From: a virus
Lineage: Duplodnaviria > Heunggongvirae > Uroviricota > Caudoviricetes
Length of the DNA stretch: 5,212 nucleotides
Strand: one strand, 5' to 3'
IMG/VR virus record: IMGVR_UViG_2609460332_000003
The translations under genes were made by a program, and so were the position numbers. Position 1 is the first letter of the stretch, and each line of letters starts with the position of its first letter. Shown piece by piece: positions 1 through 5,212 of the stretch. Below the pieces are notes generated by a model, which was given only the letters and a program-made list of their open reading frames with translations, had not been told where the DNA came from and ran no database searches.

Positions 1-264
1 CTTATTTCGGGGAGATCTGTTTACAGTATCGGATCTTCGGTCCGTGGTGATGACGTTGCCATTAGTCCAGCGCTGAAGTGTCCGAATAGAAATACCGATA
101 CACCTACAAGCCTGACTTTTCCGGGCGCCGTTGATAACGGCCTCGTGGATAAGAGAAATAATTTTACGCCGCTCCAGGAGAGGGGTCAGTCTTCCTCGCT
201 GTTGTCCCAGAGGGCATTGAACTTTTCCCTTAATATAAGCAGGGCCGCTGCTTCCGCCAGAGCT
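1..264 (-). CDS. IS3-family transposase OrfB, N-terminal fragment (-1 frame relative to orfA; partial, runs off window start)
   Basis: The minus-strand frame -1 relative to orfA is open from the TAA at 267-265 to position 1 (88 codons with no stop) and overlaps the last ~26 codons of orfA. Its translation (...RRKIISLIHEAVINGARKSQACRCIGISIRTLQRWTNGNVITTDRRSD...) has the HTH-like motif seen at the start of IS3-family OrfB proteins. A candidate A-AAG slip site sits at minus-strand GGGAAAAG (plus coordinates 229-222). Confidence 0.5.
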
Positions 265-698
265 TTATCTTTGCGCTTAAGCTCTTTCTCCAGTTCTCGT
301 AACTTATTTTTTGCGTCACGCAATGCCCTGTCTGTTCGGATATTTTCCGTCAATTTCTTTTCATGCGCCTGAATTGAGATAGCCCGCCATTCTTTAACCT
401 GTTCAACAAACAATCCCATGCGTCGGCAATAATCAGCTAGTTCCATTTCTGACAGCGTAGCCGTCTCAAGAACAACTGAGAATCGACGCTCCGGTGTCCA
501 GTCTTCAACATCAACGGAGGTAATCTTTTCATTTTCAGGTAAAAGTCCTTGCTCCACTAACTCACATCTCCATTTTGATACAACTGAGGCACTGATCTTC
601 AGCTTACGGGCTATCTGACGATGTGACCAGCAGTATGGTGGTAAAAGCCATATCAGTCCTTTCTCTTTGAGTTCACTTGGTATTGGTTGTCCTGGCAT
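186..698 (-). CDS. IS3-family transposase OrfA (N-terminal HTH, C-terminal leucine-zipper-like coiled coil)
   Basis: ORF track gives 186..728 (180 aa) from a TTG. The in-frame ATG at 698-696 (MPGQPIPSELKEKG...) is preceded by a strong Shine-Dalgarno (minus strand AAGGAGATAACA-ATG), so I place the start at 698 (170 aa). The protein has HTH-like segments (IARKLKISASVVSKW; LSEMELADYCRRMGLFVEQVKEW) and a C-terminal heptad-repeat region (LRDAKNKLRELEKELKRKDKALAEAAALLILREKF), typical of IS3/IS150-group OrfA. The exact IS name is not recognised. Confidence 0.75.
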   Translation of the reverse strand: MPGQPIPSELKEKGLIWLLPPYCWSHRQIARKLKISASVVSKWRCELVEQGLLPENEKITSVDVEDWTPERRFSVVLETATLSEMELADYCRRMGLFVEQVKEWRAISIQAHEKKLTENIRTDRALRDAKNKLRELEKELKRKDKALAEAAALLILREKFNALWDNSEED

Positions 699-772
699 TG
701 TTATCTCCTTAAAAAATTGAGGCGACAACTATGCTGACACAGGGGGTTACTCACCGATCTCCTTCACGGTAA

Positions 773-1003
773 TACGCAACTTTCTCCGGGGATTATCTCC
801 GCGTAACTGACAACAAGGGGAAAACGCACGATGTGCTGACCGGAAGTGATGACGGTCGCCACAGCAACACGTCTCTGGCGTGGGGGGCTGGCGTGCAGTT
901 TAACCCGACCGAATCCGTGACCATTGACCTTGCTTATGAAGGTTCCGGTAGTGGCGACTGGCGAACGGATGCATTTATTGTTGGTATCGGATACCGTTTC
1001 TGA
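773..1003 (+). pseudogene. lom: 5'-truncated lom-like gene (Ail/Lom/OmpX-family outer membrane protein), C-terminal ~76 codons only
   Basis: The frame ending at TGA 1001-1003 translates to YATFSGDYLRVTDNKGKTHDVLTGSDDGRHSNTSLAWGAGVQFNPTESVTIDLAYEGSGSGDWRTDAFIVGIGYRF*. The ...AYEGSGSGDWRTD.FIVG.GY.F terminus is the characteristic last beta-strand region of lambda Lom/Ail-family proteins. There is no N-terminal signal peptide or first ~130 codons; the frame is closed by TAA at 770-772 right next to the IS. Gene order lom then stf then tfa matches lambda. Confidence 0.8.
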
Positions 1004-1107
1004 CAACAGACGCCGATTTATCTTCTGTAAATATTGTTATGATACGCAGGTTCATCCACCTTATGGGGTGAACTGCGTTTGAGGAAACGTAAAGTTACAC
1101 TGTCCTG

Positions 1108-1141
1108 AAGCCCGTGGCGTCACTGCTGCGGGCTTTTTTTA
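1108..1141 (+). terminator. Putative rho-independent terminator downstream of lom
   Basis: AAGCCCG (1108-1114) pairs with CGGGCTT (1129-1135) as a 7-bp GC-rich stem, with a 14-nt loop, followed by a T-run (1134-1141). It lies 13 nt upstream of the stf ATG. Confidence 0.5.
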
Positions 1142-1154
1142 TTGGTGGAAAAGT

Positions 1155-2792
1155 ATGACAGTAAAAATTTCTGGCGTGCTTAAAGATGGCACAGGAAAAC
1201 CAGTACAGAACTGCACCATTGTGCTGAAGGCCAGACGAACCAGCAGCACGGTGGTGGTGAACACGGTGGCCTCTGAAAATCCGGATGAAGCCGGACGTTA
1301 CAGCATGGATGTTGAGCATGGTCAGTACAGCGTCACCCTGCTGGTTGAAGGTTTTCCGCCTTCACATGCCGGGACCATTACCGTCTATGAAGGTTCCAGA
1401 CCAGGTACGCTGAATGATTTTCTCGGTGCCATGACGGAGGATGATGTACGACCGGAGGCACTGCGCCGCTTTGAGCAGATGGTAGAAGAGGTGTCACGTA
1501 ACGCCTCCGCGGTTGCACAGAATACGGCAGCCGCGAAAAAATCAGCCAGCGATGCCAGTGCATCAGCCAGCGAGGCGGCAACTCATGCAACCGATGCTGC
1601 AGCCTCATCACGTGCCGCCAGCACGTCAGCCGGACAGGCCGCGTCGTCGGCTCAGTCAGCGTCTTCCAGCGCAGGAACGGCATCGACAAAGGCCCGTGAA
1701 GCAGCAAAAAGTGCTGCTGCTGCAGAGTCATCAAAAAGCGCGGCAGCTACCAGCGCCAGTGCCGCGAAAACGTCAGAAACGAATGCCGCAGCATCACAAA
1801 AATCGGCAGCCACTTCTGCATCCACAGCGACCACGAAGGCGTCAGAAGCTGCCACCTCGGCACGGGGTGCGGCGGCCTCAAAAGAGGCAGCGAAATCTTC
1901 AGAAACGAATGCATCATCAAGTGCCAGTAGTGCAGCTTCCTCGGCAACGGCGGCAGGAAATTCCGCGAAGGCGGCAAAAACGTCCGAGACGAACGCTAAG
2001 TCTTCTGAAACAGCAGCGGGACAGAGCGCCTCAGCTGCGGCAGGTTCAAAAACAGCGGCTGCATTATCTGCCAGTGCCGCGTCAACAAGTGCCGGGCAGG
2101 CCTCAGCCAGTGCCACCGCCGCCGGAAAATCGGCAGAAAGCGCCGCATCATCCGCTTCAACAGCCACAACGAAGGCTGGCAAAGCCACTGAGCAAGCCAC
2201 TGCAGCAGCGAGGTCTGCTTCTGCAGCAAAAACCTCTGAAACAAATGCAAAGACTTCAGCAGACAATGCTGCTTCCTCTAAGGCGGCAGCCGCATCGTCA
2301 GCCAGTTCAGCGGCGTCATCGGCATCATCTGCGTCTGCTTCAAAAGATGAGGCGACCAGACAGGCGTCAGCAGCAAAGGGCAGCGCCACGACGGCATCCA
2401 CGAAGGCGACAGAGGCAGCTGGCAGTGCGACGGCGGCAGCTCAGAGCAAAAGTACGGCGGAATCCGCGGCAACGCGCGCCGAGACAGCGGCAAAACGGGC
2501 AGAGGATATTGCATCCGCCGTGGCGCTTGAGGATGCGAGCACGACGAAAAAGGGGATAGTACAGCTCAGCAGTGCGACCAACAGCACTTCCGAGTCACTG
2601 GCGGCAACGCCAAAAGCGGTTAAGGCGGTAATGGGTGAAACGAACAAGAAAGCGCCCTTAAATAGTCCTGCACTGACCGGAACGCCAACAACACCAACTG
2701 CGCGACAGGGAACGAATAATACCCAAATCGCAAGCACGGCTTATGTTATGGCTGCGATCGCTGCCTCGTGGACTCGTCGCCTGACGCACTGA
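1155..2792 (+). CDS. stf: Side tail fibre protein Stf, N-terminal portion (545 codons; reading frame terminated prematurely by an apparent 1-nt deletion)
   Basis: ATG at 1155 preceded by GGTGG (1144-1148). N-terminus MTVKISGVLKDGTGKPVQNCTIVLKA... followed by a long Ala/Ser/Thr-rich repeat region with recurring K(T/S)SETNA motifs, as in lambdoid prophage side tail fibres. The frame ends ...TAYVMAAIAASWTRRLTH*, whereas the conserved tail-fibre motif ...AAIAALVDSSPDALNTLNELAAALGNDP... continues in the next frame. Confidence 0.85.
   Translation: MTVKISGVLKDGTGKPVQNCTIVLKARRTSSTVVVNTVASENPDEAGRYSMDVEHGQYSVTLLVEGFPPSHAGTITVYEGSRPGTLNDFLGAMTEDDVRPEALRRFEQMVEEVSRNASAVAQNTAAAKKSASDASASASEAATHATDAAASSRAASTSAGQAASSAQSASSSAGTASTKAREAAKSAAAAESSKSAAATSASAAKTSETNAAASQKSAATSASTATTKASEAATSARGAAASKEAAKSSETNASSSASSAASSATAAGNSAKAAKTSETNAKSSETAAGQSASAAAGSKTAAALSASAASTSAGQASASATAAGKSAESAASSASTATTKAGKATEQATAAARSASAAKTSETNAKTSADNAASSKAAAASSASSAASSASSASASKDEATRQASAAKGSATTASTKATEAAGSATAAAQSKSTAESAATRAETAAKRAEDIASAVALEDASTTKKGIVQLSSATNSTSESLAATPKAVKAVMGETNKKAPLNSPALTGTPTTPTARQGTNNTQIASTAYVMAAIAASWTRRLTH
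1497..2520 (+). repeat. Imperfect in-frame tandem repeats encoding an Ala/Ser/Thr-rich low-complexity region of Stf
   Basis: Recurrent near-identical DNA words: AAAACGTCAGAAACGAATGC (1767-1786), AAATCTTCAGAAACGAATGC (1893-1912), AAAACGTCCGAGACGAACGC (1977-1996), AAAACCTCTGAAACAAATGC (2228-2247). The GCN/TCN codon periodicity leaves alternative frames open on both strands. Confidence 0.75.
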
Positions 2793-4060
2793 ATACGCTG
2801 AACGAGCTGGCTGCGGCGTTGGGCAACGACCCGAATTTTGCGACCACCATGACTAGCGCGCTTGCGGGTAAGCAACCGAAAGATGCCACCCTGACGGCGC
2901 TGGCCGGGCTTGCTACTGCGGCAGACAGGTTTCCGTATTTTACGGGGAATGATGTTGCCAGTCTGGCAACCCTGACAAAAGTTGGGCGGGATATTCTTGC
3001 GAAATCGACCGTTGCCGCCGTTATCGAATACCTCGGTTTACAGGAAACGGTAAACAAGGCTGGTAACGCCGTTCAGCGTTCCGGCGATAAAATGACCGGA
3101 GAACTGAAAATTGGCACGGTGAATGCGCTGCGAATTTTCAATGATGCCTTCGGTCTTATTTTCCGTCGTTCAGAAGATTTTCTTCATTTCATTCCGACGG
3201 CTGAAGGACAAGGCGAAAACGGTGATATCGGCCCATTAAGGCCATTCGCTATAAATCTGAGAACAGGTGCTATATCTGTCAGCCACGGGGCCAAAATTGA
3301 TGGTGGGCTGGCGCTTGGTACAGATAACGCACTGGGCGGTAATTCCATTACTCTCGGAGATAACGACACTGGTATTAAACAGGGCGGCGACGGTGTCCTT
3401 TTATTCTATTCAAATGGACAACTGGCATTTGGGCTTCAACCCGCATCTGCTGATTTTTATAAGCGGGTTGCATATATTCATCAGGGAATAATTCCTGATG
3501 GAAGTGGCGCATTTGCAGACCAGTTGAATAATGCCACCGCGCCTTTTGTTCAGACGCAGTTTGCCTGGAATCCCACTCCTGGTGGTCTTTACGTGCCGAT
3601 AGTTAAGGGCTTGTCCATTCGCAATGGACAGGGCTATCCCGGCGCGGTCAGCTTTGGGTATTTACTGACAGAACAGTATGGATTTCCGGTTCCATGTATT
3701 CATATGCGTGGCGATGGCGGTAATGATGCTTTATGGCAGTTTAACCCGAACGATAAATCCTTTATTTCACCGGGTGCTCTTATTGCGGGTGGCGTCCGTT
3801 ATAACACCGATGGAAATATATTTGGTGGGTGCTGGGGGTCAAACTTAAATGATTACCTGAATAGTTCTTTTATCAGAAATGTGCGTCTGGGAGGCAGACG
3901 TTCTGACACATTATATCGCGGAGGACTTTGCGAACCAGGTAATGGTCATGTGACAACAGGATTGCAAATTATTGGTGAGGTTGATGGAGATGACTGGATG
4001 GTGTCACGACCACTACAAAAATACATTTCTGGTAACTGGTATAACGTTGAACAGGCATAG
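2768..4060 (+). CDS. stf: Side tail fibre protein Stf, C-terminal portion: conserved collar region (2768-3046) plus variable receptor-binding domain (3047-4060); in a different frame from the N-terminal portion
   Basis: Translation from the ORF-track start (GTG 2768) reads (M)DSSPDALNTLNELAAALGNDPNFATTMTSALAGKQPKDATLTALAGL...FPYF...VGRDILAKSTVAAVIEYLGLQE..., the conserved collar shared by P2 H, Mu S, lambda Stf and T4 gp37-type fibres. It ends ...KYISGNWYNVEQA* (TAG 4058-4060). The true protein is most likely continuous with 1155-2792. Confidence 0.85.
   Translation: MDSSPDALNTLNELAAALGNDPNFATTMTSALAGKQPKDATLTALAGLATAADRFPYFTGNDVASLATLTKVGRDILAKSTVAAVIEYLGLQETVNKAGNAVQRSGDKMTGELKIGTVNALRIFNDAFGLIFRRSEDFLHFIPTAEGQGENGDIGPLRPFAINLRTGAISVSHGAKIDGGLALGTDNALGGNSITLGDNDTGIKQGGDGVLLFYSNGQLAFGLQPASADFYKRVAYIHQGIIPDGSGAFADQLNNATAPFVQTQFAWNPTPGGLYVPIVKGLSIRNGQGYPGAVSFGYLLTEQYGFPVPCIHMRGDGGNDALWQFNPNDKSFISPGALIAGGVRYNTDGNIFGGCWGSNLNDYLNSSFIRNVRLGGRRSDTLYRGGLCEPGNGHVTTGLQIIGEVDGDDWMVSRPLQKYISGNWYNVEQA
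3021..3046. other. Gin/Pin/Cin/Hin-family 26-bp DNA-inversion crossover site (gix/pix-like), left boundary of an invertible segment
   Basis: TTATCGAATACCTCGGTTTACAGGAA. From memory, Mu gixR is TTATCCAAAACCTCGGTTTACAGGAA, giving 24/26 identity. It has the 12-2-12 layout with a central TC, and lies in frame inside stf (encoding VIEYLGLQE) at the conserved/variable junction. Confidence 0.7.
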
Positions 4061-4075
4061 CCATCAGGAGAATAT

Positions 4076-4603
4076 ATGCAACATCTGAAAAATATTACCG
4101 CCGGAAACCCCAAAACCATTGAGCAGTATCAGCTTACGAAAAAAGCTGGCGTTATCTGGCTATATACAGAAGACGGTAAAAACTGGTATGACGAATTAAA
4201 AAACTTTCAGGATGATACTTTAAAAATAGCTTATGACCAGAAGGGGATTATTCGTTGTATTGAGAAAGACGTATCAACACTTAACCCTGACGGGTTAAGT
4301 GTTGTTGAGTTACCGAATATAACAGCCAACCGTCGCGCCGATATCTCGGGAAACTGGAAGTTTCTGGATGGTAAAGTAGTAAAGCGGGAATATACAAAAC
4401 AGGAACTGCAACAGCAGGCAGAGTTACAAAAAGCCGCTTTGCTTTCCGAAGCGGAGTCTGTGATTCAACCGCTGGAACGTGCTGTCAGACTGAATATGGC
4501 AACTGATGAGGAACGCACACGACTGGAATCATGGGAACGCTACAGCGTTATGGTCAGCCGTGTGGATACTGCAAAGCCTGAATGGCCACAGAAACCAGAA
4601 TAA
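4076..4603 (+). CDS. tfa: Tail fibre assembly protein (Tfa; Mu U / lambda Tfa family)
   Basis: ATG 4076 preceded by AGGAG (4066-4070) with 5-nt spacing, 15 nt after the stf stop. The 175-aa product [23 protein letters not shown]...ITANRRAD...[23 protein letters not shown] follows the stf-then-tfa arrangement and has the Tfa-family C-terminal pattern (W.RY...V...DT......P..PE). Confidence 0.9.
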
Positions 4604-4612
4604 CAACAAATT

Positions 4613-4630
4613 AAGGCCCGTACGGGCCTT
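4613..4630. terminator. Perfect 18-bp palindrome (AAGGCCCGTACGGGCCTT) between convergent tfa and tfa'; putative bidirectional rho-independent terminator
   Basis: 7-bp GC-rich stem with GTAC loop. It is followed by TTTTCTT on the plus strand and by TTAATTTGTTG on the minus strand, and lies in the 30-bp gap between the two convergent stop codons. Confidence 0.55.
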
Positions 4631-4633
4631 TTC

Positions 4634-5167
4634 TTATTCTGGTGGTTCCGGGAATGTTACAGGAAGAACCGAGGTATCAGTTGTCTCAACCTGTTGCACG
4701 TATCGCATCCAGTTCATCAGTTGCTGTCTGTCTGAATCAGTGATAATCCCCAAAGTAAGCTGTGTTTGCCAGAACTGCGTTTTTTCTCTGGCCTGCTGTA
4801 ATAATATTTTTTTCTGGTTTTCCGTCTGTAGGCGCAACTCTTCTTCGGTATATACACGTTTAATGACTGCGCCATCTTTAAACATCCATTTACCTGAGTC
4901 GTCAGCACGCCGGTTGGCGGTAATATCAGGAATCTCAACGACGCTATAACCTTCAGGGTTAAGTGTGGAGGCATCTTTGGTTATGGCAACAATAATATTA
5001 TTTTCATCGTAAACAATCTTTATGGTGTCTGGCTGAAAGTTTTTCACTTCCTCATACCAGTTTTTTCCGTCCTCAGAGTAAAGCCAGATAACTCCGTGTT
5101 TCTTTGTTAACTCATACTGTTCCAGTGTTTTAGCATTACCCGCTTTTATGTTCTTTAAGTGCATCAT
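4634..5167 (-). CDS. Alternate tail fibre assembly protein (Tfa'; Mu U'-like), inverted relative to tfa
   Basis: 177-aa [41 protein letters not shown]...ITANRRAD...[25 protein letters not shown]. By eye it is about 70% identical to Tfa over the first ~110 residues and diverged after that. Its start is 1 nt downstream of the stf' stop, suggesting translational coupling. Confidence 0.9.
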
Positions 5168-5168
5168 A

Positions 5169-5212
5169 TTAAACGCTCGCTACATTATACCAGGTGCCAT
5201 TTATATACTTTG
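5169..5212 (-). CDS. 3' end (last 13 codons plus stop) of an alternate side-tail-fibre variable domain (stf'), partial at window edge
   Basis: Minus strand 5210..5169 translates to [13 protein letters not shown], which parallels the Stf C-terminus KYISGNWYNVEQA*. The stop TAA (5171-5169) is immediately followed by the tfa' ATG (5167). Confidence 0.6.

Follow-up and report, generated by a model that had tools for sequence, protein, structure and literature searches.

Does a 26-bp sequence that resembles the gix crossover site of phage Mu, and that is embedded in frame in a tail-fibre gene, mark a working DNA switch, or is it a stretch of coding sequence that happens to look like one? Tail-fibre inversion switches have been known since Mu, P1, e14 and p15B, and the question is raised here by a window of 5,212 nucleotides (the whole stretch of DNA that was analysed, IMG/VR record IMGVR_UViG_2609460332_000003), which covers the tail-fibre end of Phi4, a lambdoid prophage of E. 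coli ST131. A first-pass annotation made from the letters alone had proposed an invertase crossover site at 3021-3046, within stf, and this reading is supported by an inverted partner site, by genomes in which the intervening segment is flipped and hybrid sites are found, and by published work on the same locus (PMC4134206). We regard it as very likely that this sequence, hereafter site A, is one of the two sites of a Fis-dependent serine invertase switch of the Gin/Pin/Cin type, homologous to the Mu G segment and placed at the 3' end of the side tail fibre gene stf in Phi4 of ST131. The site, its partner and the switch were already known, having been published by Forde et al. in 2014 (PLoS One 9:e104400, PMC4134206).

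The end of prophage Phi4 and its split fibre gene

Bar a 1-bp deletion, positions 746-5211 of the window agree at 100% identity with the chromosomes of many E. coli ST131 strains, that of EC958 among them. The left part of the window, up to the crossover site, contains the following features.

1 to about 780 (1-781): end of an IS3-family element, with an OrfA-like ORF at 186..728 on the minus strand, interrupting a lom-type gene
Ending at 1003: C-terminal remnant of the lom-type gene disrupted by the IS element
1107-1136: terminator-like hairpin of 13 pairs followed by a T-run, downstream of the lom remnant
1155..3034, plus strand: constant part of stf (Sc), up to the crossover, with a Pfam phage_tail_N match (E=5e-70), common to the native and flipped fusion proteins
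3021..3046, plus strand: crossover site A, the promoter-proximal gix/pix-type site named 'Phi4_5prime' in Table 3 of PMC4134206

In the constant part, an N-terminal domain of lambda type is combined with a shaft rich in Ala and Ser. In EC958, stf is a single intact ORF of 968 aa, whereas in the window one C is missing from the C-run at about 2764-2766 (CC versus CCC), which splits the gene into ORFs 1155..2792 and 2768..4060; the best 20 matching genomes each span one base more than the window. Site A therefore sits in the downstream fragment of a split gene, so that its placement in frame in the stf coding sequence stands, while the frameshift upstream of it had been missed by the first-pass annotation. 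This deletion may truly have made a pseudogene of stf, or it may be an error in sequencing the homopolymer. If it is real, the switch in the window's strain flips DNA without making a full-length fibre and, taken together with the IS-disrupted lom gene, this means that the prophage may be defective and the switch perhaps without phenotypic consequence in that strain.

Besides the deletion, the window differs from EC958 Phi4 by its IS3-family element, in place of which EC958 has ISEc12 (IS21-like), ending at window position 745. The exact IS3/lom junction of the window was absent from all complete E. coli genomes searched. EC958 retains window positions 746-781, which likewise match an IS3-type end, and this suggests that ISEc12 was inserted into, or replaced most of, an IS3-type element in EC958.

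The middle of Stf (window positions ~1500-2500) is a long, low-complexity stretch rich in Ala, Ser and Thr with repeated SETNA-like motifs, of high GC (about 0.6) and strong AT skew (0.3-0.4), in which all three other long ORFs are overlapping artefacts of composition. As for the annotation of EC958, RefSeq/PGAP calls part of the intact 968-aa stf (8410-9906 of L001:8410-11316, L001 being the numbering of the EC958 locus) a truncated pseudogene and leaves 9907-11331 unannotated, and it labels the silent Sv' cassette (L001:12425-13318) an 'incomplete' tail fibre protein; these labels are artefacts of the kind that invertible fibre genes typically produce in annotation.

A gix-like site at the constant/variable boundary

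The 26-mer TTATCGAATACCTCGGTTTACAGGAA, on the plus strand, is made of two 12-bp half-sites around a 2-bp core (TTATCGAATACC-TC-GGTTTACAGGAA, central TC at 3033-3034), and the half-sites are symmetric at 7/12 positions, in agreement with the imperfect symmetry that had been described. Mu gixL and gixR (AF083977) both have the sequence TTATCCAAAACCTCGGTTTACAGGAA, from which site A differs at 2/26 positions, exactly the number given in the first-pass annotation. Codons 3020-3046 of ORF 2768..4060 read V I E Y L G L Q E, as was also pointed out, and the central TC forms positions 2-3 of a Leu codon. The start of an AT-richer variable region just after the site, seen by eye, is borne out by GC content, which drops from 0.58 in 2750-3049 to 0.48 in 3050-3349 and to about 0.40 by 3800-4400. 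The site had also been placed where a conserved collar gives way to a divergent receptor-binding domain; the boundary is real, the two alternative C-terminal cassettes diverging straight after GL(Q/R)E, with only two local similarity blocks further on, while 'collar' can serve only as a loose name for the conserved part before site A, since a search of Stf found no Pfam match to a collar domain at E<=0.01.

How much weight can such a match bear? The 26-mer motif belongs to a stretch of tail-fibre coding sequence that is conserved, and phage P2 has a copy in gpH (TTATCGAATATCTCGGTTTACAGGAA) that differs from site A by 1 mismatch and encodes the same motif. Unlike Phi4, P2 has no partner site within +/-3.5 kb of it, no alternative cassette and no recombinase or invertase gene nearby. 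A gix match alone is therefore not diagnostic, because the motif can persist as a relic, and the 26-mer of Phi4 might likewise be kept only for coding VIEYLGLQE and no longer recombine. The dead invertase gene of Phi4, described below, would fit such a relic. A working switch is told apart from a relic like that of P2 gpH by the partner-site test, not by the match to the motif.

An inverted partner beyond the window

The window itself holds no second match to site A with up to 3 mismatches, nor did any turn up in 200 shuffles, and the same threshold returned nothing in the EC958 locus, in which the DNA beyond the window end can be followed. The partner, site B, was found by reading the sequence upstream of an invertase stub; the search had missed it because it has 4 mismatches. 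The invertible segment and what lies beyond it are organised as follows.

3035..4060, plus strand: Sv, variable C-terminal cassette and receptor-binding tip in the window's orientation, starting with the right half-site (GLQE)
4076..4603, plus strand: tfa, encoding a U-type tail fibre assembly chaperone cognate to Sv (Pfam Caudo_TAP, E=9e-35)
4613..4630, no strand assigned: hairpin AAGGCCCGTACGGGCCTT where tfa and tfa' converge in the middle of the invertible segment, with T-rich tails on both strands
4634..5167, minus strand: tfa', encoding a U'-type chaperone cognate to the silent Sv' (Pfam Caudo_TAP, E=6e-32)
5169..5212, minus strand: last codons of Sv', the silent alternative cassette, which runs off the window and continues in EC958 at L001:12425-13369
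L001:13358-13383, inverted relative to site A: partner site B, TTCTCGTAAACC-GA-GGTTTTAGATAA
L001:13438-13617: invertase stub of 60 codons (Pfam Resolvase, E=3e-15)

Site B lies ~3.06 kb downstream of site A, between Sv' and the stub, and its reverse complement (TTATCTAAAACC-TC-GGTTTACGAGAA) has the same central TC as site A, from which it differs at 4/26 positions. The inverted partner that a crossover site calls for is thus present in the flanking genome. Sv-tfa and the convergent tfa'-Sv' lie within the 3,083 bp that separate the central dinucleotides of sites A and B, and tfa' is expressed only after inversion. The hairpin between the two chaperone genes looks like a bidirectional terminator, judging from its match to the consensus.

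A third site was considered within tfa', where an inverted exact copy of the 11-bp core, ATACCTCGGTT, occurs at 4667-4677 (full 26-mer at 4659-4684, minus strand). It was rejected, since the full 26-mer agrees at 13/26 positions, below the best chance matches in shuffles (15-17), has no counterpart in Mu, and inversion there would truncate the fibre. This core copy falls in the C-terminal codons of tfa' (…TDTSVLPV…) and is probably a coincidence.

The locus is the one listed for EC958 by Forde et al., whose Table 3 gives Phi4_5prime at 1484784..1484809 and Phi4_3prime at c1487865..1487890 (PMC4134206); both listed sites are identical to sites A and B, and the coordinates agree. The segment is 3106 bp long in that paper, by outer site edges, and the corresponding outer span is 3,107 bp here. 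The Mu G segment has the same gene order (Sc-site-Sv-U-U'-Sv'-site-invertase), its gix sequence differs from site B at 3/26 positions, and its chaperones U and U' are 78% and 69% identical to Tfa and Tfa', respectively. Unlike in Mu, the constant part in Phi4, which is a lambdoid prophage, belongs to a Stf of lambda type (phage_tail_N, 968 aa) rather than to Mu S, the Sv tips are largely different (the homology of Sv to Mu S is weak) and the cis invertase is a pseudogene.

Both orientations occur in nature

When the 3,083 bp between the central dinucleotides were flipped in silico and the product was searched in all complete E. coli genomes, it was found in one piece at 100% identity (5,700/5,700 nt) in many of them. 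The flipped configuration is present in 136 complete genomes, against 230 with the window's orientation (in each case a place covering >=80%, that is at least 80%), which are counts of genomes irrespective of phylogeny and not of separate flips. The flip swaps GLQE-Sv and Tfa for GLRE-Sv' and Tfa', in frame, so that each orientation pairs a complete fibre ORF with its own chaperone: 968 aa with Tfa in the native form and 941 aa with Tfa' in the flipped form, the window's own ORF being broken by the upstream frameshift. The PGAP annotation of strain 4/0, which is flipped, shows the 941-aa fibre protein as complete, with the gene for the other chaperone after it. Published PacBio data from a single EC958 culture also include contigs, assembled separately, with the Phi4 segment in the alternative orientation (PMC4134206).

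It might be argued that such differences between genomes are assembly artefacts, a repeat-flanked segment having been placed in an arbitrary orientation, all the more so since spurious extra contigs from mixed orientations were noted in EC958 (PMC4134206). However, behind those contigs themselves there are real reads of each orientation, the reads are far longer than the flanking repeats of only about 36 bp, and 136 independent complete assemblies agree with the predicted product, which leaves the artefact with a negligible probability. A relic kept only for its codons has hardly better prospects, and we judge it very unlikely: a correctly oriented partner and a complete Sv'/tfa' cassette exist, the inversion product is found with hybrid sites among the 136 flipped genomes, and both orientations were present within one EC958 culture (PMC4134206).

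Real inversion could still have been brought about by RecA-dependent homologous recombination between short inverted repeats rather than by a site-specific invertase, and the sites do belong to an imperfect inverted repeat of about 36 bp (Table 3 of PMC4134206). Where strands were exchanged can be read from strain 4/0, in which both parental sites are absent and the two hybrids, A-left/B-right and B-left/A-right, are present instead; the exchange therefore took place within the shared 12-bp stretch ACCTCGGTTTAC, which contains the central TC. This stretch of identity is bounded by mismatches and coincides with the invertase cleavage core. Given the substrate-length requirements of RecA, 12 bp of identity is too short for efficient recombination. 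Moreover, at the analogous locus of Phi1 about half of the reads from a single culture were in the flipped orientation (PMC4134206), a share that implies frequent inversion, and intact invertases of the Gin family are present. We accordingly hold a RecA origin of the two orientations to be highly improbable, and favour inversion by a site-specific invertase acting at the cores of sites A and B.

Three Swedish strains, 4/0 (flipped) and 4/1-1 and 4/4 (both native), were at one point read as serial isolates showing flipping over months. This was withdrawn because their Phi1 regions are organised differently.

A dead local invertase and a probable enzyme in trans

Which enzyme works the switch? 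Next to site B there is only the 60-codon stub, a 180-nt 'recombinase family protein' pseudogene in the EC958 annotation, which is identical to Mu gin at 174/180 nt (97%). Beyond it come stop codons, degeneration (23/45 identity to Mu gin) and fusion to a tfa fragment, and the stub therefore encodes no enzyme. The absence of an adjacent functional serine invertase gene bears on the autonomy of the system, not on the identity of the site. Further downstream (L001:13681-13764 and 14637-15188) there are several tfa/DUF4376 fragments and a gene for a SAM-dependent methyltransferase; these point to repeated rearrangement or decay at the prophage end, beside the disrupted ompW attachment region.

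Since the local invertase is dead, the enzyme must come in trans, and Forde et al., who described the Phi4 invertase as severely truncated, proposed that the Phi1 invertase acts in this way (PMC4134206). Phi1 is a P2-like prophage of EC958, about 0.5 Mb away, with an intact Gin-like invertase (WP_000905061.1) that is 85% identical to Gin and is encoded beside a second invertible fibre cassette, and intact invertase genes are found in the Phi1 region of strains 4/0 and 4/1-1 as well. Its crossover sites, which lie in a 508-bp inverted repeat (PMC4134206), are near-identical to those of Phi4; between the Phi1 5' site and site A there are 2/26 mismatches, and a hybrid site formed on Phi4 inversion has exactly the sequence of that Phi1 site. 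Phi1 has likewise been seen in both orientations, its tail-fibre cassette being opposite in EC958 (L004, 955500-964500) and 4/1-1 (L007), but unlike Phi4 it is a different prophage at a different chromosomal site and has its own working enzyme. Judging by these near-identical sites, the Phi1 invertase is the most likely source of a trans-acting enzyme for Phi4. The Phi1 region of strain 4/0 (L006) is a remnant of different organisation, in which two recombinase genes occur together with several short pieces of tail-protein genes, and it recalls a multi-site, shufflon-like arrangement.

In the Hin and Gin systems, the two sites, each bound by invertase dimers, come together in supercoiled DNA on an enhancer occupied by Fis; the invertase then makes cuts staggered by 2 nt at the central dinucleotide, rotates by 180 degrees and religates the DNA (PMC3798978, PMC3575834). 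By analogy, inversion of the Phi4 segment would involve (i) invertase, supplied in trans and likeliest from Phi1, binding as dimers to sites A and B, (ii) synapsis of the bound sites on a Fis-bound enhancer in supercoiled DNA and (iii) 2-nt staggered cuts at the central dinucleotide, rotation by 180 degrees and religation.

The enhancer of the Hin system, 65 bp in length, begins about 100 bp away from hix (PMC3798978), and the coding region of gin holds three Fis sites (PMC3378877). In the interval of the stub placed by the position of the Hin enhancer, 100-165 bp from site B, 64/66 nt are identical to Mu gin, and this conservation suggests that the 5' stub probably still supplies a putative cis-acting enhancer. 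It is possible, and we put it forward tentatively and with some doubt, that the Phi4 switch is an 'orphan' cassette, whose decayed invertase stub has been retained (at 97% DNA identity to Mu gin) for its Fis enhancer, while variation is driven wholly by the invertase of the P2-like prophage. Retention of the stub for a cis enhancer is the only element of this account that we did not find in print, and it is one that we infer. A literature search for intragenic invertons in tail fibres returned no papers.

Implications

It is the partner site and the flipped genomes that prove the switch, the gix match being only a lead. That a real recombination site could be recognised from sequence by a reader without tools matters little beyond the confirmation given here. 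The Phi4 switch is a documented source of confusion in both assembly and annotation. In the pandemic ST131 lineage it makes a prophage tail fibre alternate between two receptor-binding tips and, if the orphan-cassette reading were true, it would represent a functional dependency between unrelated prophages residing in the same cell.
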